Below are positions 9,301 to 64,000 of a DNA stretch of 64,000 bases, piece by piece. The DNA comes from Cyanidioschyzon merolae. Lineage: Eukaryota. Below the pieces are notes generated by a model, which worked only from the letters and a program-made list of their open reading frames with translations, searched no databases and was not told the DNA's origin. The stretch is taken from assembly GCA_000091205.1 (NCBI GenBank), contig AP006498.2; one strand, given 5' to 3'. Every line of letters begins with the position of its first letter. The first letter of the stretch is position 1. The translations under genes and the position numbers were made by a program.

Positions 9301-9490
9301 ATGTAGCGACAACGTTCAGAGGCGGCGAGCTCGGGAGTTTAAACCTGCCATCAACATCCCTCAACAAACGACGACAGAACCTGAGTAGAAGTAGAGACTG
9401 GCGTATGTAAAACGGGAGATAAGAAAACAAAAAAATTAGCCGTCAGACTAAAAGCACGCAAAACTGGGGTTGATGATGGAGGAAGGAGAC

Positions 9491-10246
9491 CTAAGCTTCG
9501 GCGTGTGCACCTGTTTTGGAGGCCCAGCGACTTGCTCCATACGCTACTACGGGCCTTTGACGCTTGCACTCCTTCAAGGCGCTCAACTGACTGAAAAGAA
9601 TGTTGAATGTGCGCTGCTTCCCACAGTACAGGTTCATACGCTGGAAAGCCCACCGGGGCTTGGTATATTCTCTCCAGAGCGCCTCCCAATGAGCAACGCG
9701 AACTTTCATGAACTCCCGAAAAGCTCGATAGCCCGCTCCGCGGCACGTCATCTCGCTGGTCGCTTCCAGGTGATCCTTCACTCGTGCATTCCATGTCTGA
9801 ATTTTCTTCCTTGCACTCATGATGCCGGATTCTCGGTAGTATCTCGCCCTCGAGAGCTTGAAAAGACGAATGTCTTTATGAGGCAAATTACCGTCAGTAC
9901 CATCTTCCGCTCGCTTGGGTGCTGCGATGGCTATATGATTCGTGTTTCCAGGGTCTGTGCCAACGACAAAGCCGTTATCCTCCACCTCCTGCGTCACAGG
10001 ATCCTCCTCCTTCTCATCTTCATGGTTCGTCACGGGCGCAGCCGAGGGCGGAACTGGACGATCTGTCTTCAAGCGCCGATAGTGTACATACATGGTTACT
10101 CCATCGGTCTCAATCATCCCAGTGAATAACTTTTGCTTGCTCGTATTGAGACGTTTGAAATCGAAAATATTCTTCCAGTACGTCTCCCGGTTTTCGCCGG
10201 AGGATTCCTCCCTGCTAACATCGAACTCCGAACTGATCTCCTTCAT
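9491..10246 (-). pseudogene. Truncated TnpB/Fanzor-like nuclease ORF (RuvC-I only) of copy A
   Basis: The 251-aa ORF aligns to the N-terminal half of the copy B protein ([22 protein letters not shown]; [24 protein letters not shown] RuvC-I; [28 protein letters not shown]). It contains only one unit of the 25-aa repeat. It terminates after VVAYGASRW and lacks the zinc finger and RuvC-III. Confidence 0.7.
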
Positions 10247-12140
10247 GATGCACTAGAAGACCTTGGAGTCGATAGTCACAAAACGTGACTTGATGTTGCA
10301 CAACGGAACGACGTTGAAGCGCGTCCCCCATTAGGAAAGCCTTCCGTTTCTCCGAATCTTCGTTTTTTGTCCCACTAAGCTTCATCTCTGCCTTGCCTTC
10401 GAGTTCTCGATCCAAAAACACGAAATACCTCAATATGAGGAGGTAGTATCTTTCCTTATCTTTTTCAACTCTGATACCTTTTCTGCTGGATTCGCCAGCT
10501 CCAGTACCGTACGATGCTCTTGCATGACCGCACGGATTACAGAAGCTTCATTCGTGCTCTCGTTTGACGCCTTCTTGTCTACAAATTGGATCTCATCTTC
10601 ACGCTTGTGATCTTTCGTGATGCCATTGATTATCGCCCATATTCCTTTGCGAGAGGCACCCGGGTAGAGCGCAAACACGGCGCCTATCATGAAACGTTCG
10701 AGGTTCACGATCATATGTTTCTTCAGGTTCGTGAGGTACTTCATGGCCCCGTAGGTAAACATACCCCAGTATCCCATGTATCGAGTGCCGTTGAAGTGGT
10801 ATTCGGAGTGATTTTCGTGGAAGGCATGCACTAGCTCATTTTCCCTCCGCGCTTCCCCTTTACTAAGCATCAGGTGCCGAAGAATGGTCTTGTCGAAAAA
10901 ATCGCCCGGAACCTCGACTGTTTCCATGTCCGTCACGTCGAGATACATCTCCCTCGACATATGCATTAGCCCTGACGAAGCCTTTATAATACTCATGGAG
11001 TACGACTTAACACGGTTTCTAGTTGCCTCCCGTAACTTCTCCACCCACGCATTCTTGATATGTTTAAGAAGACAGGCTTTCACCACCGTCACGTAGGACT
11101 CTTGTTTTTCGTGCAGCTTCTGACGTGGGCTCTCCCTCTTCTGCGTCTTTGTCTTTTCCTGTTACTCTCCGCCGGGCACTGTTTTTCGTTTTTTTTCTGG
11201 CAGCCGGCGACACCTGCCTTCCAGGATCCTCCACTTGCTTTTCCAGAAATTTCCTTTTTTCGGAAAAGAACGCGCTTTGAACGCTTCTGTTATTAACTGC
11301 GAAAAATCAACCGAATACACTCATTAGAGCGTTGAAACACGACTGAGATGAAGTAATATATTTCGCTACGATTCCAATGCAAATACACGTTTTACGTTAA
11401 AACAACAAGTCAACGAATGGTCAGGATTGCGTTTCCCTTCAACGGCGAGATGCGCGTCGTACCTCATGCCTGCCGGTAATGGAGGTGCGCATCTCGACCG
11501 CACTATATGCAGCAAAGAACAGAGACTAGCTACTGACTAGCAATGAGATGACAATTTCATTCCCACTCTACAGTAAACGTTAAAAGGGCAAATGTTGCCA
11601 GATCGTCGAAAGCTTACCTTCCAGGCGAAAGGTCCAGCGAGCCGGACGAGTCTCCGGGGGTTCGTGCTTCATGGCTTCCCCTTCGCCACCCCAGTGCCAG
11701 GTGCTTTAGTGATATCTGACCAACTCATCCCCGAAGCGGTTTATTCCGGCATTAAGGGTGCTCAGGCAGCGTCTGGGCGTCGCCCGGCTTGCAGTTATCT
11801 CCTAGTATATCGCTTCGCGCTGCCGCAAACCGTATGTCTATCTGTACAAATTGCAGGCTCCCAGAAAGACAATTAGCCCCGATTCCGTATCACGTGTAGT
11901 ATTCCCCGAGCCGACGCCCCCGGTAGTGTGGTAAATATGTTCTGTTTCCGTGATACATCTGAACCATCGGTAGAGGGGCTATTCCGGGTGCTCACGGCCG
12001 GCAAGCGGCGCATGAGAGAACGAATGAAACGACCAGAACGTTCGAAAGCATGTATAAGTAATGGAACTTGGAGGTAGGGTGCAGCATGGCGGACGCTTCC
12101 CCGATTGCCAATTCCCATCTCGCAATCCGGGATCCATAGT
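9500..12140 (-). mobile_element. Fanzor/TnpB-like element, copy A: older, 3'-truncated and degenerate
   Basis: Nucleotide and protein homology to copies B and C. The TnpB-like ORF stops after RuvC-I and lacks the RuvC-II-to-RuvC-III part. Homology to copy B begins near 9510 (aligning to B at about 49230). It then continues to about 11783, with a roughly 220-bp insertion in A, and from 12008 to 12140. The 5' module (about 10960-11783) is about 97-99% identical to copy B, whereas the coding body is about 75-80% identical. Confidence 0.75.
10430..11092 (-). pseudogene. ORF-A homolog of copy A (upstream module of the Fanzor-like gene)
   Basis: The 220-aa ORF has a nearly identical N-terminal 45 aa and about 65-70% identity thereafter to ORF-A of copy B. 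The junction with the downstream nuclease frame carries an A5 run instead of A7. Confidence 0.6.
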
Positions 12141-22008: not shown

Positions 22009-24573
22009 GCACCACATTCGACTGCTTAGGTAAACAGGTTGAATGCCGCGAGCAGCGTGGCTTGTGGGCGCCTTTCGACGTACTTGAGCGAGCGTCGCAG
22101 GGGATCTCGATGCGACGCCTTGTTCAGTCTGCTGGACATCTGCGAGATACCGTGTCCGAGCAGTGCACCGGGCAGCATTGTCAACGGCGATGATGCTAAT
22201 CATCGTGACGCTGGTATACTGATTCATGTTGAATGATGGAATTACAATTTTGCGCACCAATCCCCAAGGGAAGCCGTTCCCGATGTACATGTAGGACACG
22301 CCAGCCGTTCCGGCATTGCTGGACCGTACCGTGCCAGTGCGCGGTCACGGGCGGGAATATGCGGTCGCGGCCTCGCTGCTGTCCACTGATTTCCTTGCTT
22401 CGGAAGTGGGCAGCGTTCCGGCACCATGCTCACAACGAGTGCTGAAGGATTTGCTCGAGACTTCGCTTGATATAAAGGCACCCGATGCCACAGGAGCACG
22501 ACTTAGATATGGATGCTTCTCGGGAGGTTCAAGTCGCAGTGCAGCATGTGCTTGCGCGCATTCTATCTGGTGAATGCACACCACAGCAAGCCTCTGATCT
22601 TCAATTGCATTGAAAGCTGACGTTCGATCCGCCTACGGTTCTCTACCTGGTGCATCCAGCTCTGCATCAAGCTCAACTTTTGTACCTGATTCAGCGCACA
22701 ACCGTGCTCGTGAAGCGTGCATGTCGTTCTCAACTCGTCGATGGGAATCGTACAGCGTCGACTCGTGCACTCGTTATACGCTCTCGTCGAAGGATGACGA
22801 GTGTAGCCTTTGCGCGCTGCAGCCTGTCCAGCACCATAGCTAACACCAAATGACGAAACGCATCGGCCGTTTCATTTTCCATCTCATTGAACAGGTACGG
22901 GAATGCACGCCTCGAGCCTGCATAGCACCGTAAGCATTAGTGGCCTCAGCGTGGTCTCATGTGCTCCCGACAAAGCTTTTCCGCATAAGCGCTTTGGATG
23001 CTCATACACGCACCGAATGAAACGTACGAATCATTGTCCTCTGCTCCATACATGACTGAGAGCGTCGAGATCGGGGTTCTGGTAACGTCGTCATTCCAGT
23101 TGATGATATACCTCGTCGTGATCATTGTGCTCGACTCACGAACATACCGAGCCAGGGAAAAGCTCATCAGATTCATCTGCTTTCCGTTCAGGCCTTTGGC
23201 CGCGTGCTCTTGACTTGGAGGTACGGCGACGTCTATGACGCCCTGGTACCACGAATTCATGCCCGGAATCAAGTCTTTCATTTCAGTTGCTTTTGGACAG
23301 TTGAAAATGCATCTCGTGGTTCGACTCGCTTCTTGGCTATACAATGTGCATTCAGATTGACATTTAGTCGTTCTCCATGGTCTCTGTATACCTCTTGTCA
23401 TGTCCTCCCCGTAAACGCGAATCCTTGACCGAGCTGCACCTGTGCCCTCCGCAAACTTTGATCAAATGCTTCATTGCTGTTGGAGGACATCGGCTCCTTT
23501 TCCCCATCTCCAATACCTGGTGGAGTCGCATAGATTTGGTCGCTATGCTGTATATTCGTTTTTGTCCTAGAGGTTCAGATGCACTGGGTAGACGGAAAGT
23601 GTGATCCACTGAGACGAATACTCATCTCGAATGTTCCCTGCGTTCGCAGTACACGACGACATCGACACTGTGCTGTTCATCGCGGAACAGGATCCGAATA
23701 AAGACTCGCAGTTTTCAGAGTCCCTTCATGCCTCCTGATCACCATTCGTACCAACGTTACGAAGACTTCACAAATCCTATCAATCTTTCGGCAGGATCGC
23801 ATGGTGAATGCAACGGGTGGAATCGATTGACCAGGGCCGAGTCATACCGAAAGAGCTTGATCAGTGCTTGTTTTCGGCGCATGACGTTCAGCGAAAGGAC
23901 CAGGAGGAGTGCGATTCGTCTACCACCTGCTGACCGAACTATGACTGACTTGTCGAAACAATGCCGTTTTTAGCGAACGAAAATTCACCGCATAAAGTCC
24001 TTCTGCGACCTTTCTCCCATTTACAGGATTTGTACCTCTAGTTGACTACTTTCGAGGAAAAAGAACGGAAACAATGAGGACGTGCTGCTACTGGTCCTCC
24101 GGGTTTCACCGATGATCATCGCGATGACTATGGTCAGTGAACCCCAGAGCTAGGCGCGGCATCGCTCCGTGATCATGCTCCGCCCTTCTATGAAACGCAG
24201 ATGCCAGTAGGTTTCGCGTCAACAGCATCAGAGTGCACAAGTCGCAAAGTGCTCCCGTTTCACTGCTTCACGCGACACGAAGCGGGTCCAGTGCGTGCTA
24301 CCCTAGCAAGTACTCGTGTTCTGCGAAACTCGAAACGCGTATCGGCGCTTTATCACCGAGACAAATCTTGAAAACAAGTACAGTGCTGTTATGTCGATCT
24401 CGTGCTCCCAGCGATAGCATCTTTGGAGCGATTTCGCGAAACAGTCACGTCGAGGAACTCGTATCCCCGACACTAGCGAAATACCCAGCGGAGCTTGCAT
24501 CTCGTTGGAAGCAGTGCACGGCAACTCCCCGCATGAGATGTCGAGATGAATGCATTGCGCACCATGAGATCGC

Positions 24574-27224: not shown

Positions 27225-27830
27225 TCGGCCCGTGAGGCGCTTGTTCCACTCTTTCATCTCAATTGGGTTCCACAACCAGGTACATGGAACCAAATGATTT
27301 TTTCGCAGTTTATAGCAGACTTGTCGGAAGTGTTCTCATTGGAAGGAATAAAAAATCCAAGGGAAATGAATGGATGTGAAAGTCGACGGACGCACAGGGC
27401 CGTCATTGCCGGATTCACCAAGGGAAACGAAAAAAGACCTCTTCTTGCCGACCGTCGAGTGAAGAAGAGCAAGTGACAAAGAAGAAGGAGATATCCGAGA
27501 GCGCTTGTTTGCCCAACGAAATGGTGGCGAGATGTTAGTGACACAGAGGGTACGAGTTCTAGAAAGCCTTGCATTCATGAGTTCCACCAGAGGCAATGAA
27601 CGTAAAGAGTTCGTATACCTGGACTTTACGCCGCCATCAATACCAGACAGTGTACGGTGCTGAAGACGAGACCCGAGGAGCTGACGCGAGCAAACTTCAT
27701 GGGGCAGCCTCTGATGCTCGGAGTTTGTCCGATGAAACAGTAACCGATAGCAGGCGGCGGGCAGAACAAGGCAGGGAGGCGTCTTCGAATGGGCATAAAT
27801 GTAACCTCCATGGTTGTGAAAAAGCTTTTG
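27225..27830. repeat. Dispersed repeat family X (copy 1)
   Basis: About 600 bp is homologous to 51990-52600, for example acccgaggagctgacgcga...ggcagggaggcgtct and gtgaaagtcgacgg...ccgtcattgccg. Confidence 0.6.
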
Positions 27831-35879: not shown

Positions 35880-36480
35880 TGTCCTATTTCCGTATAGAAA
35901 GAACCGAGTGAGTCCTATAAGCCTTGCGTTCCAGTGGCAAACCTGCTATCTCCAGTCACGAACGCTCTCTATCGACCAGAGCATGACTCCAACTTGCCTC
36001 GCGCTACAGTTGCAAAACTGCTTTCTCCAATTTTAAACGCTTTCTACACTGAAAGGACCGAGTGAGTCCTATAAGCCTTGCGTTCCAGTGGCAAACCTGC
36101 TATCTCCAGTCACGAACGCTCTCTATCGACCAGAGCATGACTCTAACTTGCCTCGCGTTTCAGTGGCAAACCTGCTATCTCCAGTCACGAACGCTCTCTA
36201 TCGACCAGAGCATGACTCCAACTTGCCTCGCGCTACAGTTGCAAAACTGCTTTCTCCAATTTTAAACGCTTTCTACACTGAAAGGACCGAGTGAGTCCTA
36301 TAAGCCTTGCGTTCCAGTGGCAAACCTGCTATCTCCAGTCACGAACGCTCTCTATCGACCACAGCATGTCTCCAACTTGCCTCGCGTTTCAGTGGCAAAC
36401 CTGCTATCTCCAGTCACGAACGCTCTCTATCGACCAGAGCATGACTCCAACTTGCCTCGCGTTTCAGTTGCAACAAGGCT
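35880..36480. repeat. Satellite array: about 229-bp higher-order unit (two 75-bp subunits plus a 79-bp variant), about 2.5 copies
   Basis: ttccagtggcaaacctgctatctccagtcacgaacgctctctatcgaccagagcatgactccaacttgcctcgcg recurs at about 35929, 36082, 36157, 36312 and 36387. The array sits directly upstream of SUV3. Confidence 0.85.
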
Positions 36481-44368: not shown

Positions 44369-44795
44369 CCGCCGCGCAGAGGTGCACCTATGCCCTGGCA
44401 AGGCGTGGGAATGTCTGTACTAGCATGTCGCTAAATTTTGTGCCGCGCAGAGGTGCTCCTATGCCCTGGCAAGGCGTGGGAATGTATGTACAAGCATGTC
44501 GCTAAATTTTGTGCCGCGCAGAGGTGCTCCTATGCCCTGGCAAAGCGTGGGAATGTCTGTACAAGCATGTCGCTAAATTTTGTGCCGCGCAGAGGTGCTC
44601 CTATGCCCTGGCAAGGCGTGGGAATGTCTGTACAAGCATGTCGCTAAATTTTGTGCCGCGCAGAGGTGCTCCTATGCCCTGGCAAGGCGTGGGAAGTCTG
44701 TACAAGCATGTCGCTAAATTTTGTGCCGCGCAGAGGTGCTCCTATGCCCTGGCAAGGCGTGGGAATGTCTGTACAAGCATGTCGCTAAATTTTGT
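44369..44795. repeat. 71-bp tandem repeat, about 6 copies
   Basis: The unit gccgcgcagaggtgctcctatgccctggcaaggcgtgggaatgtctgtacaagcatgtcgctaaattttgt recurs with a 71-bp period (starts near 44369, 44440, 44511, 44582, 44653, 44723). It is preceded by an (ACACGA/CCAACA)-like microsatellite at 44220-44260. Confidence 0.9.
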
Positions 44796-46426: not shown

Positions 46427-48412
46427 CTAGTCGACTTCTTCGACAGTTGGGCCGCTGCCAGTGCCAGCGCCGCCAGCACCAGGCATGCCGCCAGCTCCAG
46501 GCATGCCGCCAGCTCCAGGCATACCACCGGCACCTGGCATGCCATCTGCAGCGCCGCCAGCTTGCTGGTACATGCGAGTGAAGATGGGCATGGTAACGCT
46601 TTCCAGCTCTTTCTGCATGTTCTTGATCTGATCGAGCGAAGCAGTGGCGCCGTTTTCTTCGAGCCATTCCAGCACTTCTTTGGTCTTGTCAAGAATCTTC
46701 TGCTTGTCGCCGGCGCTGAGGCTCTGAGCTACCTGTTCCTCTTCCACGGTGCGCTTCGCCGAATAGGCCAGCTGCTCGAGCGAGTTGCGCGCCTCGACCG
46801 TGCGTCGGACTTCTTCATCCTTCGCCTTCATGGCCTCTGCCTCCTTCACCATGCGCTCAACCTCCGCCTCGCTCAGCCGACCCTTTTCATTCTTAATCGC
46901 AATCCGTTCACTCTTACCGGTAGTCTTGTCAACTGCTGTAACATTCAGGATGCCGTTCGCATCGAGGTCAAATGTGACCTCAATCTGAGGCACACCCCGT
47001 GGTGCCGGCGGAATACCTGTCAAGGTGAACTGTCCCAACAGGTGGTTGTCCTTGGTCATAGCGCGCTCGCCTTCATAAACTTGAATCGTGACAGCAGGCT
47101 GATTGTCGGCATAGGTTGTGAAGATCTGGCTCTTCTTTGTCGGGATTGTGCTGTTCCGCGGAATCAAAACAGTCATGACACCTCCGGCGGTCTCAATACC
47201 GAGCGAGAGAGGCGTCACGTCGAGCAACAGAATGTCCTTGGTCGTTTCAGACTCATGGCCCGACAAGATTGCAGCCTGGACGGCTGCTCCGTACGCCACC
47301 GCCTCATCCGGATTGATTGACTTGCAGAGCTCCTTGCCATTGAAGAACTGGCTAAGAAGTTGCTGAATCTTTGGAATGCGTGTCGAGCCGCCGACGAGAA
47401 CGACGTCGTCAACTTGGCTCTTCGACAAATTCGCGTCCTTCAGGACCCTCTCAACAGGATCGAGGGTGCTGCGGAACAAATCTCCGCAGAGCTCCTCGAA
47501 CTTGGCTCGAGTGATTGAGCTGTAAAAGTCAATGCCGTTGTAAAGGGAATCTATCTCAATCGTCGCTTGCGTCGCCGACGACAGCGTCCGTTTCGCCCGT
47601 TCGCACGCCGTCCGCAATCGCCGCATGGCTCGATTGTTCCCAGTAATGTCTTCCTTGTACTTGCGCTTGAACTCCTTCACGAAATAATCCACCATTCGCG
47701 AATCAAAGTCCTCGCCACCCAGATGAGAATTGCCAGAGACTGCGCGCACCTCGAAGATGCCCGAATCGACGCTCAGCAAGCTCACATCGAATGTTCCACC
47801 ACCAAGGTCGTAAATCAGCACATTGCGCTCCTTGTTATCACTCGTCTTCTTATCAATACCATACGCGATTGCGGCTGCCGTCGGCTCGTTGATGATGCGA
47901 AGGACGTTCAGACCGGCGATCGTACCAGCATCCTTTGTCGCCTGGCGCTGGGAATCATTGAAATATGCCGGCACTGTGATAACAGCATCAGTAACCTTCG
48001 TTCCCAGGTATGACTCCGCAATATCCTTCATTTTCGTCAACACCATGGCACTGATCTCCTCCGGGGAGAACCGTTTCACGTCGCCATGTGCGACAACCTG
48101 GATGAGCGGCTTGTCACCCGGGCCTTGAACGACCTTGAATGGCCAGTGCTTCATATCCTCCTGCACGGTAGGATCAGAGAACTTACGTCCAATGAGACGT
48201 TTCGCGTCAAAGACAGTATTCTCGGGGTTCAGCGCTACCTGGTTCTTCGCGGCGTCTCCGATGAGGCGCTCCGTCTCCGTGAAGGCAACATATGACGGGG
48301 TCGTCCGGTTGCCCTGCTCGTTCGCAATAATCTCAACCTTGTTGCCTTCCATAACGGCAACGCACGAGTAGGTCGTGCCAAGGTCAATTCCGATCGCCTT
48401 TGCCTTTGACAT
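46427..48412 (-). CDS. HSP70: Cytosolic heat-shock protein 70 (HSP70/HSPA family)
   Basis: [26 protein letters not shown] and [14 protein letters not shown] signatures are present. A C-terminal (GMPGAG)n repeat is followed by the EEVD cytosolic tail. The 661-aa ORF is uninterrupted with an ATG start. Confidence 0.95.
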
Positions 48413-48690: not shown

Positions 48691-48873
48691 GAAGCTTTGC
48701 CGCGAAAAACGCCAGCGGCGTACAGTAGTGGCAGCGACCGCGCCTTAGACAAATCGTTCTCAGCTGACGTGCAGACGCCTCCCAGCCTTTCTCGACCGGC
48801 CACCTACTACTGCTTCCAACTTCTTCTCATATAGTTCGACTTTGAGGGGTTGTCCAACAAAGTTCTCTCTTGT

Positions 48874-50274
48874 CTATTCTGGAGATCTGTTCTCCAGCAC
48901 CGCACATCTCCGTATATTGCTAGGGGCATGAAAGTCACGATTCACACACTCCATACGGTTCTTGCCATCATTGGTTGTACTTACTAACGCAGGCAATCCT
49001 CGAACGTTCGCCCTCCTTTCCATTTGCTCCTCTGTTAGCGGTCCGTACTTTGCGATTTCCTCAGGGCACCGCTGGCACTTGTCTATCTCGACCGTCTGAA
49101 GTGTACAACCCAGCTCGTGGTGTGTATAGGACGTTCGGAACTCATCTACAGGTATCGTGACGAGACGCCTTCCACACTCCTTGTACGTTCTTGTTGTTGG
49201 AGCTGGTATGCACCCCTTTTGGGTCTTCCATCGCCCTGCTCCATACGCTACGACGAGCCTTTGACTCTGGTCCCCGTTGAGCGCACGCAACTGATTGAAA
49301 AAGTTGGCAAACGCCCGCTGCCTCCCACAGTGTAGATTCATACGCAGACGGGCCCACCGAGGCTTTGTATATTCCTTCCACAGCGCATCCCAATGGGCAA
49401 CACGAACTTCCATGAATTTCCGAAAAGCTCGAAAGTCCGCTCCTCGGCTCGTCACCTCGCTCATAGCTTCCAGGTGCTCTTTCATTCCTGAATTCCACGT
49501 TTCGATTTTCTTCGTCGCATTTATGACACCGGATTCTCGATAGAATCTCGCTCTCGAGAACGTCAACAGACGGATGTCTTTCTGACGTAAGTTGCCGTAA
49601 GTACCATCTTCCGCCCGCTTCGGTGCTGCGATGGTTATGGTATTTGTGCTTCCGGGGTCCGTGCCAACGACAAAGTCGATATCCTGCACTTTCTGCTTCT
49701 CAGAACCCGCCTTCTTGTTCTCTTCATTCTTTACCGCGCCAACGACAAGGTCGTTATGCTCCACCTCCTGCATCGCAGGATCCGCCGTCTTCTTATCTTC
49801 ATCCTTCGTCACGTCAACGACAAGGTCGTTATCCTCCACCTCCTGAATCGCACGTTCCTCCTCTTTGTTTTCTTCATCCCTCGTCACGGGCGAAGTCAAA
49901 GGCGGAACTGGCCGATCTGTCTTCAACCGCCGATCGTGTACACAAAAGGCTACCCCATCGGTTTCGATCTTCCCAGTGAATACATTTTGCTTGCTCACTT
50001 TGGGACGCTTGGAATCGGAGATACGCTTCCAGTGGGTCTCCCGGTTTTCGCCGGTGAAATCCTTCCTGCTAACACTGAACTTCGGTCCGATCTCCCTCAT
50101 GATGCCGTAAAGGACGCCGGAGTCGATACTCACGAAGTATGACTTGATATTGGACAATGGAACCACGCCGGAGCGCTTCCCCACTAGGACAGCCTTCCGT
50201 CTCTCCCACTCTTCATTTGTCTCTTCACTCAGCTTCATCTCCGCCTTGCGTTCGAGCTCTCGGTCCAGAAACAC
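48874..50274 (-). CDS. TnpB/Fanzor-like RuvC-fold nuclease homolog (OMEGA-type RNA-guided endonuclease family)
   Basis: RuvC-I: [20 protein letters not shown] (D at about residue 206). Zinc-finger region: [13 protein letters not shown]...EIDKCQRC...MEC. RuvC-III: [15 protein letters not shown] (compare TnpB DRDxNAAxNIxxxG). The canonical RuvC-II glutamate is replaced ([11 protein letters not shown]). A 2-unit 25-aa acidic repeat sits just N-terminal to RuvC-I. The ORF track start is GTG; the first in-frame ATG is at codon 13. Confidence 0.75.
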
Positions 50275-50308
50275 AAAGTACCGTAGGACGAGGCGATAGT
50301 ATCGTTCC

Positions 50309-50947
50309 TTATCTTTTTTTCAACTCTGATATCTTTTCTGTTTGATTCGCCAACCCCAGTACCGCACGGTGCTCTTGTACAGTCGCCCGGATCACAGAAG
50401 CTTCATTCGCGCTCTCGTTTGACGCCTTCTTCTCGACAAATTCGACCTCATCTTCATGCTGTCGATCTTTCGTGATGCCATTGATAGTCGCCCATTTTCC
50501 TTTGCGAGAGATGCCCGGGCGGAGTGCAACCGCGGCGCGGATCACGAAACGTTCGAGGTTCGTTGTCAAACGGCTCGTCAGGTTCGTGAGGTACTTCATC
50601 GCCCCGTGGTCGTAAATATCCGCGCCACCCCTGTATCGGGTACGCTCGAAGCGGAATGCCGCGAAGTTTTCGTGGAGGGCATGCACTAGCACATTTTCCC
50701 TCCACGTTCCTGCTGTACAAAGCATCAGGTAGAGAAAAATCGTCTTGTCGAAAACCTCGTCCGGAATCTCGACCGATTCCATGTGCGTCACGTCGAGATA
50801 CATCTCCCTCGCCAGATGCATCAGTCCTGACGAAGCCTTTATAATACTCATGGAGTACGACTCAACACGGTTTCTAGTTGCCTCCCGTAACTTCTCCACC
50901 CACGCATTCTTGATATGTTTAAGAAGACAGGCTTTCACCACCGTCAC
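50309..50947 (-). CDS. ORF-A: probable N-terminal extension/exon of the Fanzor-like protein, separated by a +1 frame break at an A7 run
   Basis: The 212-codon ORF ends ...ISELKKR-stop at an AAAAAAA run. With A6 the frame would read ...[28 protein letters not shown]... directly into the nuclease ORF. The frame is also open upstream of its GTG start-type codon. A 77-codon KR-rich ORF (50944-51177) lies in another frame across the poly-T runs. Confidence 0.55.
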   Translation of the reverse strand: MTVVKACLLKHIKNAWVEKLREATRNRVESYSMSIIKASSGLMHLAREMYLDVTHMESVEIPDEVFDKTIFLYLMLCTAGTWRENVLVHALHENFAAFRFERTRYRGGADIYDHGAMKYLTNLTSRLTTNLERFVIRAAVALRPGISRKGKWATINGITKDRQHEDEVEFVEKKASNESANEASVIRATVQEHRAVLGLANQTEKISELKKR

Positions 50948-51919
50948 GTAGGACTCTTGTTTTTCGTGCAGCTTCTGACGTGGGCTCTCCCTCTTCTGCG
51001 TCTTTGTCTTTTCCTGTTACTCTCCGCCGGGCACTGTTTTTTGTTTTTTTTTCTGGCAGCCGGCGACACCTGCCTTCCAGGATCCTCCACTTGCTTTTCC
51101 AGAAATTTCCTTTTTTTCGAAAAAGAACGCGCTTTGAACGCTTCTGTTATAAACTGCGAAGAATCAACCGAATACACTCATTTGAGCGTTGAAACACGAC
51201 TGAGATGAAGTAATATATTTCGCTACGATTCCAATGCAAATACATGTTTTACGTTAAAACAACAAGTCAACGAATGGTCAGGATCGCGTTTCCCTTCAAC
51301 GGCGAGATGCGCGTCGTACCTCATGCCTGCCGGTTATGGAGGTGCGCATCTCGACCGCACTATATGCAGCAAAGAACAGGACTAGCTACTGACTAGCAAT
51401 GAGATGACCATTTCTTTCCCACTCTACAGTAAACGTTAAAAGGGCAAATGTTGCCATATCGTCGGAAGCTTACCTTCCAGGCGAAAGGTCCAGCGAGCCG
51501 GACGAGTCTCCGGGGGTTCGTGCTTCATGGCTTCCCCTTCGCCACCCCAGTGCCAGGTGCTTTAGTGATATCTGACCAACTCATCCCCGAAGCGGTTTAT
51601 TCCGGCATTAAGGGTGCTCAGGCAGCGTCTGGGCGTCGCCCTGGTCGCAGCGCATTCGGTGGTACGCCTACGCTGTTCTGTCCCTGTGCAGCATCCGCTC
51701 CAGCGGTACAAGCGCTGCGGCGGGTGCTCACCGCAGGCTCGGCGCACGAAAGAACGCACAAATCGACCAATCTAGCGGAAAGGGAGTCTAAGTAATGGAA
51801 CCTGGAGGCAGGGTGCACCATGATGGGCGCTTTCCCGAAAGCCGATATCCATCCCGCAATCCGTGATCCACGGTCAACGAATAGGTTTTCTCAGACCAGA
51901 AAAAGAACAAGACACGACG

Positions 51920-52600
51920 CACATCTCGCCGTTGAAGGGAAACGCGATCCTGATCATGAACGTGTCGCTCTAACGGACAAGACGTGTTAGGGTTGAAGGG
52001 GCAGCAAGGTCTAGTCTTTCAATGCATTCGTGTTCCACTAGCCTCGTAGAGTATTCAAGTGGTTTTTCGCGGTTAACAGCAGATGCGTTCCAAGTGCGTT
52101 CGTTCTCAAAAAAAATAGAATGCAATGGTATGGACGTGAAAGTCGAGGATACCGGAGGACCGTCATTGCCGAGTTCGACAAGCAAAATGAGGAAATCCTC
52201 TTCCCGCCGACCACCTATCCAAGAAGAACAACGGGTGACGACAACGAAGACGATGACGATGACGACGATGCGATATAGGCGAGAAAAGGTGTTTGCTCAC
52301 CGGTACGTTTACGAAACTGTGGTGGCACAGAGAGCACGAGTTCGAGGCGTCTTCGCAAAGCGAGGTTCCACCATCGGCCATAAATGCAAGGAGTTCGTCG
52401 ACCGAGACCCCAACGTCGCCATCATGATCAGATAATATGCAGAGCGAAAGACTTTACCCGAGGAACTGACGCGATCTGACTTGCGGGGCAGTCTCTCAGG
52501 GTCTCCGTACACAACCAGAAGCTGAAGCCGACAGCAGGGCCCGGTCCAGCACGGCAGGGAGGCGTCTGCGGGTAGATATCCATGTATACGACATGGTCGT
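51920..52600. repeat. Dispersed repeat family X (copy 2), beginning with an inverted copy of a roughly 230-bp module of the Fanzor-like element 5' region
   Basis: 51920-52145 is the reverse complement of 51095-51320. The match is near-perfect over the 40-bp core tcaggatcgcgtttcccttcaacggcgagatgcgcgtcgt and about 70% elsewhere. 51990-52600 is homologous to 27225-27830. Confidence 0.6.
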
Positions 52601-56170: not shown

Positions 56171-56379
56171 TCAATAGGCTCCCGAGAGAAGCCTGGGGAG
56201 CTGCAAAAGATATCTGCAGTGGACCGTCGTGCGCTTCCAGGTTGCCCGACTTGGGCGAGTGCTCCACTGGAACGAACAGCAGCGAGAGCGCTCGATGACG
56301 CCCGGCGGCAGCGCAGCTGCAGATCGCACACTCGTCCATTTGCGGGTGTAGCTGCAATCGCTAAATTGTCAAGTGCAAG

Positions 56380-56990
56380 CGGCACCAGCAACTCGAGAAC
56401 GATGGGTTTCTCTCTCTACGGTAAGTGCTGAAAGGGGGAAGAGGTTTTCCGTATTTTCGAAACTTTATCCTATAGATGGAAAAGCAGCAACTCGAGAACG
56501 ATGGGTTTCCATCTCCACGGTAAGCGCTGAAAGGGGAAGAGGTATTCCGTATTTTCGAAACTCTACCCCATAGATGGAAAAGCAGCAACTCGAGAGCGTT
56601 TGCTTTCCCTCTCTACGGTAAGTGCTGAAAGGGGGAAGAGGTTTTCCGTATTTTCGAAACTTTATCCTATAGATGGAAAAGCAGCAACTCGAGAACGATG
56701 GGTTTCCATCTCCACGGTAAGCGCTGAAAGGGGGAAGAGGTATTCCGTATTTTCGAAACTCTACCCCATAGATGGAAAAGCAGCAACTCGAGAGCGTTTG
56801 CTTTCCCTCTCTACGGTAAGCGCTGAAAGGGGGAAGAGGTATTCCGTATTTTCGAAACTCTACCCCATAGATGGAAAACCAGCAACTCGAGAACGATGGG
56901 TTTCCATCTCCACGGTAAGCGCTGAAAGGGGGAAGAGGTTTTCCGTATTTTCGAAACTTTACCCTATAGATGGCAGATCTCGCGTGCTCG
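56380..56990. repeat. About 100-bp tandem repeat, about 6 copies
   Basis: The unit aactcgagaacgatgggtttccatctccacggtaagcgctgaaagggggaagaggtattccgtattttcgaaactctaccccatagatggaaaagcagc recurs near 56388, 56489, 56586, 56686, 56787 and 56885. It lies in the MgtE upstream region and generates long spurious ORFs on both strands. Confidence 0.9.
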
Positions 56991-58391
56991 ACGTGTCTAC
57001 CGGGCTTGTGCTCCGTGCGACTCTGCAGTGGCGGGTGCTCTTGCGCGACCTGAGTAGCATACCCGCTCCTAGGCCCAGAATAAAGTGCGTTGGGGACGAG
57101 TGGCTGTGCTGTTGCCACTGCACTCGCCAGGGCAGAGACGCGCGGACCTACAACACCGGAGCATTGTCGGCCTTGCGGGACCTTTCGTACAGAAGCTAGG
57201 TTTGCGACTGTAAGGAAACCTTCACCACTTTTCAGCTCTTACGGTGGAGTGGGAACGAAGTCATGCAAAGTAGTTTGTTCGTGTTTCATTTCTGTTCTAT
57301 TACCCTAATAGTTGATGTCCAGTGAAACGGAACGCATGCCCGGGTTGCGCTGCCGGCGCGGCAATTGTTGATACAATAACATCGATGAATCGAACCAGAA
57401 CGCTTGGGATGCGTACGTTCGTGCTGTACGCAATCAGGAAAGTGACCAGCATTCCCTAGAGACGTCCATGCGCCCCGGAAGCTGCAGCCCGTTTCCCAGC
57501 CTGCACCGGGAGTTTGACTGAGCGAACGACCCTGCAATTGCCGAGCCTACCGCAAGCGCTTGCTGTGGCGTTGCAGGCGCCCAACTAGTCGCCTTGTGGA
57601 GACAAAAAGCGTCTGCGTCGTATCCCAGCGGGAATCTCATCGAGGCTCAGGGCCATGCCCGCCTGGCACACGCCCCTTCGTTGTCCGTGCGAATTTCGGG
57701 CCGCATGGAGGTCGTGCTGCGGCGCGAACTCGCGGCATCGTCGTATCTGCTCGCTGAAGAGCGACCGCCTGCGGTCGCTGCTTCCTCCGCATACCGTGCA
57801 ACTGCATTCTTTCTGCCAACGGGGGTGACGTGCGCCAGTTCGGCATCGCCCGCGTGCTGCAAATTTGAAACCGTCACCGGCAAAGGATTTCTGTCCGCCT
57901 AAGTAGCTTCTCTAGGCACAGGCGTCTCCATCGGGAGCTGGGTACACGTGCTGGGTTCCGGATGAGGGTGCATACCCAGTCTCGCCACAATGCCCGCTCG
58001 CTGGACGTATCCGCGTGACGCTGTGTGCCTCGTTTGCCTCCAGGCCGGGTTTCTGGTAGTTGAGGACACCGCGCAGCCTGCTCATATGCAAGCCAGCCGA
58101 TCCTGCGTGCATTTTCGTGATCGAGTGCTCGCGTGCGTGCTATCAGTAGCCCGTCTGCGTGCCATCCGATTCCACGAGGAATCTTCAGAACAAATGCGCG
58201 CACCTACAGCATCAGTGGCAACGAGTAAGCACGAGTACCGCAGACCTCGAGTGCAGACTGCTGTATGCCTTGCATGCAGCGCGTCGCGCTGTCGACGCTG
58301 CGGCAGGGCGCCTTGTGCGCAAATCGGCTGCGACGTCTGTACTCGCGTCGAGACGCCTTTCCAGTAGGCAGCGTTCGGGAAAACTGCAGCC

Positions 58392-61212: not shown

Positions 61213-61793
61213 TCCTTTGACGCGATTCTTCTCGATATAATTGAAGCGTTGTCCAGTAACCTGAAAGATCGGGCGCTGCCAGAAAACTCGTCCGCAACAA
61301 GGCACGAAATGCACGCCCTGTCGAAGCGCAACAGCACACCGGTACAGTGTTAGCGGCCTTTCACCGCAGAAACTCGCACTGATGGTGCTTTACGGAAGCT
61401 TCTCTTCGTCGCGCCTTGAGCTCTGTTCCCGGTCGAAGCGAGGCTCCCCGGGTCTGCAAAGCTCTAATAAAGCCACGTGGGCAAAGAGTCGTGCACTGCA
61501 GCAGCTGCAGCACGAACCAGATATGCTGCACCCGTTCAGAGCAAGTGCAGTGCCTCGTCTCTACTGCCGATAACGGATCCGGAGACCGACGACGGTAGAG
61601 AAACCAAACGCCTTCACAGAGTCGAACGATGCCGACTGTGTACAGTAGTGGCGGTGAACGCGCCCTAGACTTAAAGTCGCCAATTGACGTGCAGACGCCT
61701 CCCAGCCTTTCTCGACCGGCCACCTACTACTGCTTCCAACTTCTTCTCATATAGTTCGACTTTGAGAGGTTGTCCAACAAAGTTCTCTCTTGT

Positions 61794-63419
61794 CTATTCT
61801 GGAGATCTGTTCTCCAGCACCGCACATCTCCGTATATTGCTAGGGGCATGAAAGTCACGATTCACAAACTCCATACGGTTCTTGCCATCATTGGTTGTAC
61901 TTACTAACGCAGGCAATCCTCGAACGTTCGCCCTCCTTTCCATTTGCTCCTCTGTTAGCGGTCCGTACTTTGCGATTTCCTCAGGGCACCGCTGGCACTT
62001 TTCCATCTCGACCGTCTGAAGTGTACAACCCAGCTCGTGGTGTGTATAGGACGTTCGGAACTCATCTACAGATATCGTGACGAGACGCCTTCCACACTCC
62101 TTGTACGTTCGTGTTGTTGGAGCTGGTATGCACCCCTTTTGGGTCTTCCATCGCCCTGCTCCATACGCTACGACGAGCCTTTGAGTCTGGTCCCCGTTGA
62201 GCGCACGCAACTGATTGAAAAAGTTGGCAAACGCCCGCTGCCTCCCACAGTGTAGATTCATACGCAGACGGGCCCACCGAGGCTTTGTATATTCCTTCCA
62301 CAGCGCATCCCAATGGGCAACACGAACTTCCATGAATTTCCGAAAAGCTCGAAAGTCCGCTCCTCGGCTCGTCACCTCGCTCATAGCTTCCAGGTGCTCT
62401 TTCATTCCTGAATTCCACGTTTCGATTTTCTTCGTCGCATTTATGACACCGGATTCTCGATAGAATCTCGCTCTCGAGAACGTCAACAGACGGATGTCTT
62501 TCTGACGTAAGTTGCCGTAAGTACCATCTTCCGCCCGCTTCGGTGCTGCGATGGTTATGGTATTTGTGCTTCCGGGGTCCGTGCCAACGACAAAGTCGAT
62601 ATCCTGCACTTTCTGCTTCTCAGAACCCGCCTTCTTGTTCTCTTCATTCTTTACCGCGCCAACGACAAGGTCGTTATGCTCCACCTCCTGCATCGCAGGA
62701 TCCGCCGCCTTCTTATCTTCATCCTTCGTCACGTCAACGACAAGGTCGTTATGCTCCACCTCCTGCATCGCAGGATCCGCCTTCTTCTCATTTTCATCCT
62801 TCGTTACGCCAACGACAAGGTCGTTATGCTCCACCTCCTGCATCGCAGGATCCGCCGCCTTCTTATCTTCATCCTTCGTTACGCCAACGACAAGGTCGTT
62901 ATGCTCCACCTCCTGCATCGCAGGATCCGCCGTCTTCTTATCTTCATCCTTCGTCACGTCAACGACAAGGTCGTTATCCTCCACCTCCTGAATCGCACGT
63001 TCCTCCTCTTTGTTTTCTTCATCCCTCGTCACGGGCGAAGTCAAAGGCGGAACTGGCCGATCTGTCTTCAACCGCCGATCGTGTACACAAAAGGCTACCC
63101 CATCGGTTTCGATCTTCCCAGTGAATACATTTTGCTTGCTCACTTTGGGACGCTTGGAATCGGAGATACGCTTCCAGTGGGTCTCCCGGTTTTCGCCGGT
63201 GAAATCCTTCCTGCTAACACTGAACTTCGGTCCGATCTCCCTCATGATGCCGTAAAGGACGCCGGAGTCGATACTCACGAAGTATGACTTGATATTGGAC
63301 AATGGAACCACGCCGGAGCGCTTCCCCACTAGGACAGCCTTCCGTCTCTCCCACTCTTCATTTGTCTCTTCACTCAGCTTCATCTCCGCCTTGCGTTCGA
63401 GCTCTCGGTCCAGAAACAC
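61794..63419 (-). CDS. TnpB/Fanzor-like RuvC-fold nuclease homolog, copy C (541 aa; repeat-expanded)
   Basis: Same motifs as copy B ([13 protein letters not shown]; [13 protein letters not shown]). It differs by five 25-aa [25 protein letters not shown] repeats and a few substitutions, including Cys-to-Phe in the zinc-finger region (MEC to MEF). Confidence 0.75.
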
Positions 63420-63453
63420 AAAGTACCGTAGGACGAGGCGATAGTATCGTTCC

Positions 63454-63996
63454 TTATCTTTTTTTCAACTCTGATATCTTTTCTGTTTGATTCGCCAACC
63501 CCAGTACCGCACGGTACTCTTGTACAGCCGCACGGATCACAGAAGCTTCATTCGCGCTCTCGTTTGACGCCTTCTTCTCGACAAATTCGGCCTCATCTTC
63601 ATGCTGTCGATCTTTCGTGATGCCATTGATAGTCGCCCATTTTCCTTTGCGAGAGATGCCCGGGCGGAGTGCAACCGCGGCGCGGATCACGAAACGTTCG
63701 AGGTTCGTTGTCAAACGGCTCGTCAGGTTCGTGAGGTACTTCATCGCCCCATAGTCGTAAATATCCGCGCCACCCCTGTATCGGGTACCCTCGAAGCGGA
63801 ATGCCGCGAAGTTTTCGTGGAGGGCATGCACTAGCACATTTTCCCTCCACGTTCCTGCTGTACAAAGCATCAGGTAGAGAAAAATCGTCTTGTCGAAAAC
63901 CTCGTCCGGAATCTCGACCGATTCCATGTGCGTCACGTCGAGATACATCTCCCTCGCCAGATGCATCAGTCCTGACGATGCCTTTATAATACTCAT
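63454..63996 (-). CDS. ORF-A of copy C (partial; truncated by window end)
   Basis: 180 aa, about 97% identical to copy B ORF-A. The same A7 run lies at the junction with the nuclease frame. Confidence 0.55.
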   Translation of the reverse strand: MSIIKASSGLMHLAREMYLDVTHMESVEIPDEVFDKTIFLYLMLCTAGTWRENVLVHALHENFAAFRFEGTRYRGGADIYDYGAMKYLTNLTSRLTTNLERFVIRAAVALRPGISRKGKWATINGITKDRQHEDEAEFVEKKASNESANEASVIRAAVQEYRAVLGLANQTEKISELKKR

Positions 63997-64000
63997 GGAG

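Follow-up and report, generated by a model that had tools for sequence, protein, structure and literature searches.

The three interrupted copies of a Fanzor-like gene in the analysed stretch of Cyanidioschyzon merolae 10D chromosome 16 (64,000 nucleotides, hereafter the window) are very probably decaying copies of an old and abundant Fanzor1 transposon, most likely CMe-1A, whose reading frames were very probably broken at poly-A runs by neutral mutations. All three are encoded on the minus strand: copy A at 9185-11794, copy B, a CMe-1A-type Fanzor1 element of about 3 kb, at 48720-51650, and copy C, which is cut by the window end, at 61640-64000. Copy B was delimited by self-comparison of the window and by a four-way alignment that included an intact metagenome copy (L001); its 3' end lies near 48722 (...CCACTACTGTA), and its 5' limit is approximate. 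The window contains these three copies and at least four diverged fragments, which shows that the gene is carried by a eukaryotic mobile element with several copies per genome, and 310 confirmed stretches related to the element were found in metagenomes. In an alignment of the 3' ends of 49 copies, about 150 nt after the stop codon are conserved up to CCACTACTGTA, after which similarity is lost; the self-comparison of the window showed no terminal inverted repeats where the element ends. Folding of the conserved 3' end with RNAalifold gave one conserved long-range helix of 9 bp with almost no covariation, and because compensatory changes are nearly lacking, no claim of an omega-RNA is made.

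The copies in the window fit two published descriptions with respect to the host, the length of the element, its number of copies and the type of protein. Nozaki et al. 2007 (PMC1955436) reported a "novel interspersed repetitive element" of 3.2 kb with 253 copies in C. merolae, which is transcribed and carries a WSV486-like ORF that is truncated in all copies. Bao and Jurka 2013 (PMC3627910) named a C. merolae Fanzor1 family of about 3 kb CMe-1A, the copies of which are about 80% identical to the consensus, with some of them intact. The two appear to be the same element, and the window copies most likely belong to it, an assignment that was made by matching the descriptions. CMe-1A and the window copies share the host, a length of about 3 kb, a multicopy state with a divergence of about 15-20% between copies, a Fanzor1-type RuvC protein, and ORFs that are mostly broken and in a few cases intact; nothing essential differs. 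The sites at which the ORF is broken are not given in the available parts of the two papers. The element family is most likely already known, and the window copies are ordinary transposon pseudogenes at a homopolymer hotspot; what is added here is that a single A6 run has repeatedly changed by plus or minus one base and that copies B and C have been homogenised.

The main junction in copy B is an A7 run (T7 on the plus strand) at 50314-50320, which is the only uncompensated gap, and thus the sole uncompensated frameshift, in the body of this copy in comparison with an intact reference. Direct reading of the minus strand gives GAG TTG AAA AAA AGA TAA GG, confirming the end of ORF-A that had been proposed in the first-pass annotation (UUG AAA AAA AGA UAA). 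The TAA (50309-50311, minus strand) is a product of the +1 shift, intact copies having GAT AAG at this site. Upstream of it lies ORF-A (50312-51016, minus strand, 235 codons), which encodes the N-terminal part of the Fanzor protein, aligns to residues ~30-330 of single-chain relatives and has its first ATG only at 50851; downstream lies the open frame of the nuclease (48877-50319, minus strand, 481 codons). Removal of one A from the run fuses the two into a single open frame of 713 codons, again as had been proposed. Copy C also has A7 (63459-63465), at the end of an ORF-A at 63457-63999 and before a nuclease frame at 61797-63464, while copy A has A5 (10461-10465), so that the run lengths given previously for all three copies hold.

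Intact relatives leave little doubt about the ancestral state. They are single proteins of ~600-780 amino acids that cross both junctions, in agreement with the earlier proposal that the three ORFs derive from one Fanzor-like gene. P0001 is an uninterrupted ORF of 752 amino acids, and the more distant P0042-P0045 (614-702 amino acids, 30-35% identity) are likewise unbroken, with P0042-P0044 covering 98-99% of the fused query. A segment of 216 amino acids across the main junction contains no indels in 24 proteins, and among the best 150 of 3,622 representatives most of the top-scoring proteins have ~600-700 amino acids and match the profile in one stretch. At the nucleotide level, A6 was verified as the in-frame state: the run has an in-frame length in 81 of 81 metagenome loci and is exactly A6 in 64, whereby the metagenome set (80 loci) was ranked by match quality and is therefore biased toward intact junctions, so that it shows the ancestral state and not the frequency of breaks. 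The run state of each locus was taken from a BLAST-anchored table.

The upstream junction lies in an A9-C-A6 block (51037-51052, minus strand; A9 at 51044-51052, A6 at 51037-51042) that is part of the purine-rich sequence for the K/R-rich N-terminal linker and varies in length, with 15 nt in copy A and 13 nt in L001. Here the first-pass annotation was correct only in part. The run lengths were right (A9 in copy B; A8 in copy A, 11189-11196), but a slip at the A9 run cannot join the NLS-like frame (50947-51177, minus strand) to ORF-A, because a TAA in the main frame (51017-51019, minus strand) intervenes; both the A10 and the A7 version of the run reach it eight codons later. This stop codon is common to copy A, whereas intact relatives encode Glu. 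An alternative genetic code in which TAA is a sense codon was considered for the shared TAA and rejected: thirteen long host ORFs in the window are intact in the standard code, and six host proteins are exact matches to annotated C. merolae proteins. For the transposon ORFs no exact match was found in the protein collection or the assemblies, nor did the look-up return one for the HSP70 gene adjoining copy B.

The A7 run is only one of several lesions in copy B. The NLS-like frame contains no ATG, the start codon of intact relatives being replaced by CTG at 51100-51102, and to this are added the TAA at 51017-51019, an offset between frames within the N-terminal linker, a TAG that stops the frame prematurely (48874-48876, minus strand), beyond which the frame is still coding-like (TRENFVGQPLKVELYEKK...), as in read-through relatives, and a degenerate RuvC-III motif. 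Copy A has, in addition to A5, further frameshifts, and past ~9500 its 3' end cannot be aligned to the other copies. Of the four explanations that the first-pass annotation had listed without a choice, recent pseudogenisation is supported by these multiple lesions together with the in-frame relatives. Copy B appears to be a young pseudogene, since its body is a clean frame of 713 codons apart from the A7 run, and some residual expression by rare spontaneous slippage may occur. Copies B and C differ by 14 substitutions, 4 synonymous and 10 non-synonymous (omega ~0.73), which are too few to demonstrate relaxed selection; omega is 0.53 between copy B and L001.

The coincidence of frame breaks with poly-A runs, noted before, is real. 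Runs of at least five bases make up 2.5% of the intact reference ORF but contain 23% of the 320 frameshifting alignment gaps in 80 copies, a ~9-fold enrichment. The A6 run at the main junction has undergone at least five separate length changes: A7 arose independently at least three times (in the clade of copies B and C, L082 and L088; in L084/L085; and in L086), and A5, carried by copy A and L083, at least twice. L008, which has A6, is an allele of L084/L085 (98.9% identity), and over 4,362 nt just two indels, both in A-runs, separate L084 from L008. The A7 lineage occurs at at least three loci, including L082, in which a B-like sequence lies at another locus, and L084, L086 and L088 carry further lesions besides A7. 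Such recurrent and independent changes of plus or minus one base at a single mononucleotide run resemble the indel hotspots of pseudogenes and contingency loci, and the likeness extends to polymorphism between alleles of one locus (L084/L008). Unlike in contingency loci, there is no sign of switching in use, and the changes sit in copies that are already dead, for example L084.

A recent exchange between copies is also indicated. Copy C is ~99-100% identical to copy B in the body, and the last ~100 nt and the flanks differ; at an orthologous locus (L014), the flanks are 99-100% identical to the window, but the body is only ~82% identical and has A6. The A7 run shared by copies B and C is thus probably the result of recent homogenisation by ectopic gene conversion, although the population side of this argument is weakened by the possibility that short-read metagenome contigs are chimeric inside repeats.

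Taken together, these results suggest the following course of events. The ancestral gene would have been a single ORF of ~700-780 codons for a protein with an N-terminus that is rich in K/R and resembles an NLS, helical domains in its N-terminal part, a linker of acidic repeats and a nuclease of the RuvC type. Two Lys codons (AAA AAA) within this ORF would have formed the A6 run, which is expected to gain or lose one base by replication slippage at a rate far above that of ordinary sequence. One A would have been gained in copy B and one lost in copy A, and copy C would have acquired A7 by recent homogenisation with copy B, most likely via ectopic gene conversion. The breaks would then be real, heritable and neutral mutations in dead or dying copies, and not a device of expression. 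Dead copies might persist and spread since the Fanzor protein, according to the literature, is not known to be the transposase of the element.

Motifs and fold agree with Fanzor1. The split RuvC catalytic motifs (the RuvC-I Asp and the RuvC-III Asp in D-x-N-A-A-x-N-I) are present: on the minus strand of copy B, RuvC-I lies at 49642-49671 and RuvC-III at 48913-48942, with a further motif at 49114-49149, and the family consensus is ..DPGNTN.. for RuvC-I and NRDFNAAINI for RuvC-III. Copies B and C retain both Asp, but the N-A-A of their RuvC-III has degenerated to H-A-P. The linker before RuvC-I contains acidic tandem repeats of 75 nt (25 amino acids; 49659-49888, minus strand), identified by the window self-comparison and the four-way alignment; copy C has more of these units (62579-63107). 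Scans against Pfam and NCBIfam gave no significant match for the window ORFs or the repaired protein, PDB sequence and profile searches gave no match, and the relatives had only sub-threshold matches to Cas12f1-like_TNB (E = 6e-4 to 0.23) in addition to a precomputed match to DUF8286 (PF26935) on record. Among the searches, only that by fold gave a link to Fanzor; it used an AlphaFold2 model of P0001, the closest intact relative, which is 68% identical to repaired copy B; the model has a pLDDT of 56 and a pTM of 0.41, with the acidic-repeat residues predicted at low confidence. The top seven Foldseek matches in the PDB were all Fanzor1 proteins (E = 1.7e-7 to 9e-3), with SpuFz the best (E = 1.7e-7), then GtFz and PpFz, followed by Cas12 proteins. 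The predicted fold resembles SpuFz (8GKH, 9CEU), GtFz (9CER) and PpFz (9CF0/9CF1) over the whole length, and the window family shares with the solved proteins the motifs of RuvC-I and RuvC-III as well as an N-terminus rich in K/R. However, sequence identity is only 11-14% and the TM-scores are 0.21-0.32, low values that are attributed to the poor quality of the model, which therefore shows the Fanzor1 fold class and not its detail. The window copies differ from the solved proteins in being broken and in having a degenerate RuvC-III.

The explanation that had been listed first, in which the A7 run would serve for programmed +1 frameshifting by the ribosome or for slippage during transcription and thereby join ORF-A to the nuclease and set its dosage, is very unlikely. 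The run is indeed the only place at which a +1 shift joins the two frames, since the nuclease frame has a TGA immediately upstream of it and ORF-A stops at its TAA two codons downstream, tRNA-Lys can re-pair on AAA-A in the +1 frame, and the A7 allele is found at several loci. The elements have, moreover, been reported as transcribed (PMC1955436). Nevertheless, an in-frame length is the norm in all 81 relatives examined, intact ORFs included, and distant relatives are also single ORFs; opposite shifts would be required, -1 in copy A and +1 in copies B and C; copies with A7 are interspersed with others that have A6, and L084, L086 and L088 are otherwise lesioned; and the change in L084 is recent, given the A6 allele at the same locus. 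Copy B would be devoid of a start codon and an N-terminus regardless of events at the run. Folding of the 123 nt after the run (50190-50312, minus strand) is not stronger than that of shuffled sequences, with a minimum free energy of -30 kcal/mol compared with -29.6 +/- 3.1 kcal/mol (z = -0.11), although a stimulatory structure is not an absolute requirement of a +1 mechanism. Bacterial transposases of the IS1 and IS3 families, in which A-runs serve for programmed -1 frameshifting or for slippage in transcription, share with the copies studied here two consecutive mobile-element ORFs whose frames differ by one base at an A-rich stretch. Among the IS elements, functional members retain the offset, and a stimulatory structure follows the slippery site, whereas in the Fanzor1 copies the functional state is in-frame, the sign of the offset varies and no structure was found. 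The titles listed by a full-text literature search for Fanzor together with frameshift were all unrelated, most of them genome-editing reviews.

It is likewise highly improbable that the split is tolerated, with ORF-A and the nuclease ORF being produced as two polypeptides that together form a working Fanzor. The two halves of copy B are still open and the A7 lineage is present at several loci, but this spread is explained by gene conversion, and the break does not fall between domains but interrupts an unbroken block of conserved residues (LGL.N...K..Y..LILRYFVFL). The ORF downstream of it would not be translated independently in a eukaryote, and a start at the first ATG of that ORF (50238) would cut off the conserved block, just as a start at the first ATG of ORF-A would cut off the NLS and the VVKACLL helix, which is conserved; furthermore, the RuvC-III motif is degenerate. 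Hardly more credence can be given to the idea that the A6 run serves as a reversible switch (A6 on, A5 or A7 off), or that A7 is partly rescued by slippage of the polymerase or the ribosome. The recurrent changes from A6 to A7 and from A6 to A5 and the clean 713-codon frame of copy B are compatible with a switch. If it were true, the cell would hold a reservoir of near-intact nuclease genes that can be reactivated, such as copy B.

Homopolymer errors in sequencing or assembly, with one long ORF in the true genome, are extremely unlikely. The breaks do coincide exactly with homopolymers, and with A6 the frame is open again. However, A7 is real, because it is also present where a JGI metagenome, assembled independently, covers the locus orthologous to that of copy C (the cyt c1 locus; L088); it also recurs in both copies B and C, in the B-like sequence of L082 and in L084 and L085, which come from two samples, and copy B has lesions outside homopolymers as well (TAA, CTG for ATG, TAG). 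The thirteen host ORFs, with 31 runs of at least five bases, are all intact, a weak argument given that there are only three runs of at least six bases in 23 kb of coding sequence of the host. The 10D genome was in addition described as finished, 100% complete and obtained with conventional techniques (PMC1955436). A short spliceosomal intron at each junction has a practically negligible probability, although Fanzor genes of other eukaryotes can hold introns: in alignment with intact ORFs that have no interruption, copies A, B and C prove colinear and deviate at the junction by exactly one base, so that, as the alignment with L001 shows, there is no inserted sequence to remove. This bears out the earlier opinion that introns are unlikely, as does the very low number of introns in C. 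merolae (PMC1955436).

The interrupted frames thus carry little weight for the biology of the organism, and their value is one of annotation: the ORFs at 48.9-51.2 kb, 9-11 kb and 62-64 kb should be annotated as Fanzor1 transposon pseudogenes, and not as separate genes or as a case of recoding. For the mining of Fanzor nucleases, the sequences of choice are copy B in its repaired form or the intact relatives from metagenomes, such as P0001. Beyond that, the copies provide a concrete case in which an AAA AAA run encoding Lys-Lys is the preferred break point of a transposon ORF, and in which gene conversion can carry such a break from copy to copy.

The nuclease frame of copy B (48877-50319, minus strand) contains RuvC-I and RuvC-III motifs, and ORF-A (50312-51016, minus strand), which ends ...GAG TTG AAA AAA AGA TAA, is the N-terminal part of the Fanzor protein. 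The ORFs of the window had no significant match in the sequence libraries. Their closest intact relative, the metagenome protein P0001 (a 752-aa unbroken ORF on a 49-kb contig), yielded a poor AlphaFold2 model (pLDDT 56); the top seven Foldseek matches of this model in the PDB were all Fanzor1 proteins (SpuFz, E = 1.7e-7, followed by GtFz and PpFz), the alignments covered the entire chain, and Cas12 proteins ranked next. The fold matches and the RuvC motifs therefore justify the label "Fanzor-like" used in the first-pass annotation. A family profile search yielded 3,622 cluster representatives; among the best 150 of these, most top scorers were about 600-700 aa long with one continuous profile match, and some of the relatives found had sub-threshold Cas12f1-like TNB matches.

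In copy B the gene comprises three successive open frames: NLS-like, ORF-A and nuclease. The removal of one A from the A7 run at the ORF-A/nuclease junction (50314-50320, minus strand; T7 on the plus strand) results in a single frame of 713 codons, confirming the claim that ORF-A ends at an A7 run and that A6 would fuse it to the nuclease frame. The run lengths reported for the other copies were also found: A7 in copy C (61640-64000, truncated where the window stops; run at 63459-63465) and A5 in copy A (about 9185-11794; run at 10461-10465), as well as, further upstream, an A9-C-A6 block in copy B (51037-51052, minus strand) and A8 in copy A (11189-11196).

The ancestral gene is one ORF with A6, as the first-pass annotation had assumed for the in-frame state. 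The distant relatives P0042-P0045 (30-35% identity) have an initial Met followed by a K/R-rich stretch and continue as one chain via ETVVKACLLKHI and LILRYFVFLNREIE up to the RuvC domain. The junction lies within a conserved block, not at a domain boundary, and a 216-aa segment across it has the identical length in 24 proteins. The DNA of metagenome locus L001 reads GTTG-AAAAAA-GAGAAGG at this site, that is, A6. All 81 metagenome loci, which were picked by match quality, are biased to intact junctions and inform on the ancestral state rather than on the frequency of breaks, have TTG plus 6 nt, with exactly A6 in 64 and substitutions in the others.

The A6 run is a mutational hotspot. Five distinct copies were examined in which the called ORF begins at VFLDRE and is broken at or near the junction: loci L082, L084/85 and L086 have A7, L083 has A5, and L087 has a CGA to TGA nonsense mutation. 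In P0007 a base appears to have been lost from the TTG before the run, as read from the protein sequence. The events are independent of one another. Copies B, C, L082 and L088 group in a single clade. L084/85 is closest to L008, which has A6, at 97.9% identity; L086 is closest to A6 copies only, at about 84%, which is also the level for the nearest relatives of copy A. L084 and L008 are alleles of one locus (98.9% identical over 4,362 nt including flanks), and only two indels separate L084/L085 from L008, both in A-runs: the junction run (A7 versus A6) and the N-terminal run block. Of 320 frameshifting gaps in the alignments of 80 copies, 23% were indels of a single base type in runs of at least 5 bases, a crude share that includes duplicate copies and compensating alignment pairs; such runs make up 2.5% of the reference ORF. 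In the body of copy B, A7 is the sole uncompensated frameshift.

The sharing of A7 by copies B and C is most simply explained by ectopic gene conversion, which would have carried the run from one copy to the other. Their bodies (48720-50856 versus 61640-64000) are about 99-100% identical, with only 14 substitutions in the coding body compared with a typical inter-copy difference of 15-20%, while the last 100 nt or so and the flanks are mutually unrelated. At the orthologous cytochrome c1 locus, the flanks in contig L014 match the window at 99-100% identity and enclose a body of only about 82% identity with A6, and the L014 and L088-L093 assemblies together carry B-like or other bodies, of at least three types, between flanks of 98-100% identity. 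The mosaic copy L082 combines a B-like 5' half (96%) with a 3' half at 83%. The variety at the cytochrome c1 locus points either to ectopic conversion between copies of Fanzor or to chimeras, which short-read metagenome contigs may contain within repeats; what the window itself shows (the same bodies with different ends) is independent of these contigs.

The upstream linker presents a less simple picture. It is purine-rich, and all three frames are open and K/R-rich (51037-51130 in copy B, and L001, L022, L039 and L068), and copies connect the M..DPGG segment to VVKACLL by differing frames. Even L001, otherwise intact, is out of frame here; P0047, a near-identical relative, stays in frame, presumably through one additional A. 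Frameshifts in this linker seem to be tolerated or compensated. The first-pass annotation had described the NLS-like frame (50947-51177, minus strand) as offset across the A9 run; the run lengths do vary, but a single offset is too simple for copy B.

It is very probable that the breaks represent ordinary decay, that is, that the copies are pseudogenes belonging to a known Fanzor1 transposon. On this reading, real +/-1 changes at the hypermutable A6 run broke individual copies, and recent homogenisation passed the A7 break between B and C. Recent pseudogenisation had been one of four options proposed, and the real A-run changes and the other lesions of copy B bear it out.

A second option, programmed slippage that fuses ORF-A to the nuclease, is not supported. 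The functional state is in-frame, and slippage would have to act in opposite directions, +1 in copies B and C and -1 in copy A. The A7 carriers L084, L086 and L088 have extra lesions: in L084, ORF-A is broken into four pieces; L086 has a frameshift near the C-terminus; and L088 has an in-frame stop. The fold of the 123 nt past the run is not better than that of shuffled sequence (z = -0.11). Even under slippage, copy B would lack a full protein: the NLS-like frame is devoid of ATG, with CTG (51100-51102) in place of the ATG of L001, P0039, L022 and L039; a shift at the A9 run toward the ORF-A frame reaches TAA (51017-51019, common to copy A) after eight codons; the first ATG of ORF-A (50851) lies past the conserved VVKACLL helix; RuvC-III reads DFHAPSNI instead of DFNAAINI; and a TAG (48874-48876) removes the C-terminal tail kept by relatives. 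The codon homologous to this TAG of copies B and C varies (TTG, TCG, TGG, CTG, TAG and other forms), with TAG in about 9 of 49 sequences and coding-like sequence running on beyond. A full-text literature search for "Fanzor" with "frameshift" returned only unrelated titles, mostly genome-editing reviews. Taken jointly, a slippage-based rescue or switch, a tolerated split protein and a sequencing error are improbable.

Homopolymer sequencing error, the third option, is excluded as the source of A7. Contig L088 (9.5 kb), assembled from an independent JGI metagenome, carries A7 and reads CAGAGTTGAAAAAAAGATAAGG; over a stretch that runs from MgtE past cytochrome c1 and on into copy C, it is colinear with the window and 98.6-99.7% identical to it. 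L082 has A7 within B-like sequence beside another host gene, and L084 and L085 show the same A7 state in two samples. The 10D genome is finished and was sequenced by conventional methods, and none of the 31 runs of at least 5 bases in the host ORFs of the window is broken, although this is a weak test. A spliceosomal intron, rightly considered unlikely from the outset, is not present, since the alignment of the copies to intact ORFs is colinear and shows a single-base difference at the junction, leaving nothing to splice out.

Several other features accompany the copies. Tandem 75-nt repeats encoding an acidic 25-aa unit directly precede RuvC-I in copies B (49659-49888) and C (62579-63107); the unit number varies among B, C and metagenome copies, and the region has low confidence in the structure model. 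About 150 nt past the stop (48722-48873, minus strand) are conserved in 49 copies up to CCACTACTGTA, where inter-copy similarity ends; a 9-bp long-range helix therein (UAGU.GGUGG / CCGCCACUA) is conserved, with hardly any compensatory changes. We consider the region a candidate for the omega-RNA scaffold and the end of the element. Copy B has a short head-to-head neighbour (51914-52570, plus strand), related to 27350-27787. The 5'-like segment of this element repeats 51111-51317 in inverted orientation (70% identity), and a piece of the Fanzor C-terminus comes next (52322-52489). The element may have arisen by internal deletion, possibly as a derivative like TE-N2_CMe. With tblastn, Fanzor-family fragments of much greater divergence were found at 7993-8736 (plus), 22506-23275 (minus) and 27630-27725 (plus), the two longer ones at 25-40% identity, which brings the remnants of the family in the window to at least seven.

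Six host proteins of the window match C. merolae 10D entries BAM81770-BAM81784 exactly (including CMP135C and CMP139C), and from the "CMP" locus-tag prefix we read the window as chromosome 16. It has a G+C content of about 55% and thirteen long unbroken host ORFs, including FBPase, MAP65, ADA2, SUV3, HSP70, MgtE and cytochrome c1. Unlike the six neighbouring proteins, the 661-aa HSP70 ORF adjoining copy B (46427-48412, minus strand) had no exact sequence in the protein collection, possibly because of a differing annotated start. Tandem arrays lie outside the Fanzor copies at 56333-57024, 44371-44795 and 35921-36453 (periods of about 99, 71 and 75 nt), and the 99-nt array seems to align differently in metagenome contigs L088-L095.

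On our reading, the element is already in the literature, taking the repeat of Nozaki et al. 2007 (PMC1955436) and that of Bao and Jurka 2013 as one. The former reported a transcribed 3.2-kb repeat in 253 copies, every one with a truncated ORF. The latter described a single C. merolae Fanzor1 family, CMe-1A, with about 150 copies that each share about 80% identity with a 3-kb consensus, lack terminal inverted repeats and in some cases still encode intact proteins (PMC3627910). The observation of frame breaks at poly-A runs is correct, yet it is of an ordinary phenomenon: transposon pseudogenes.
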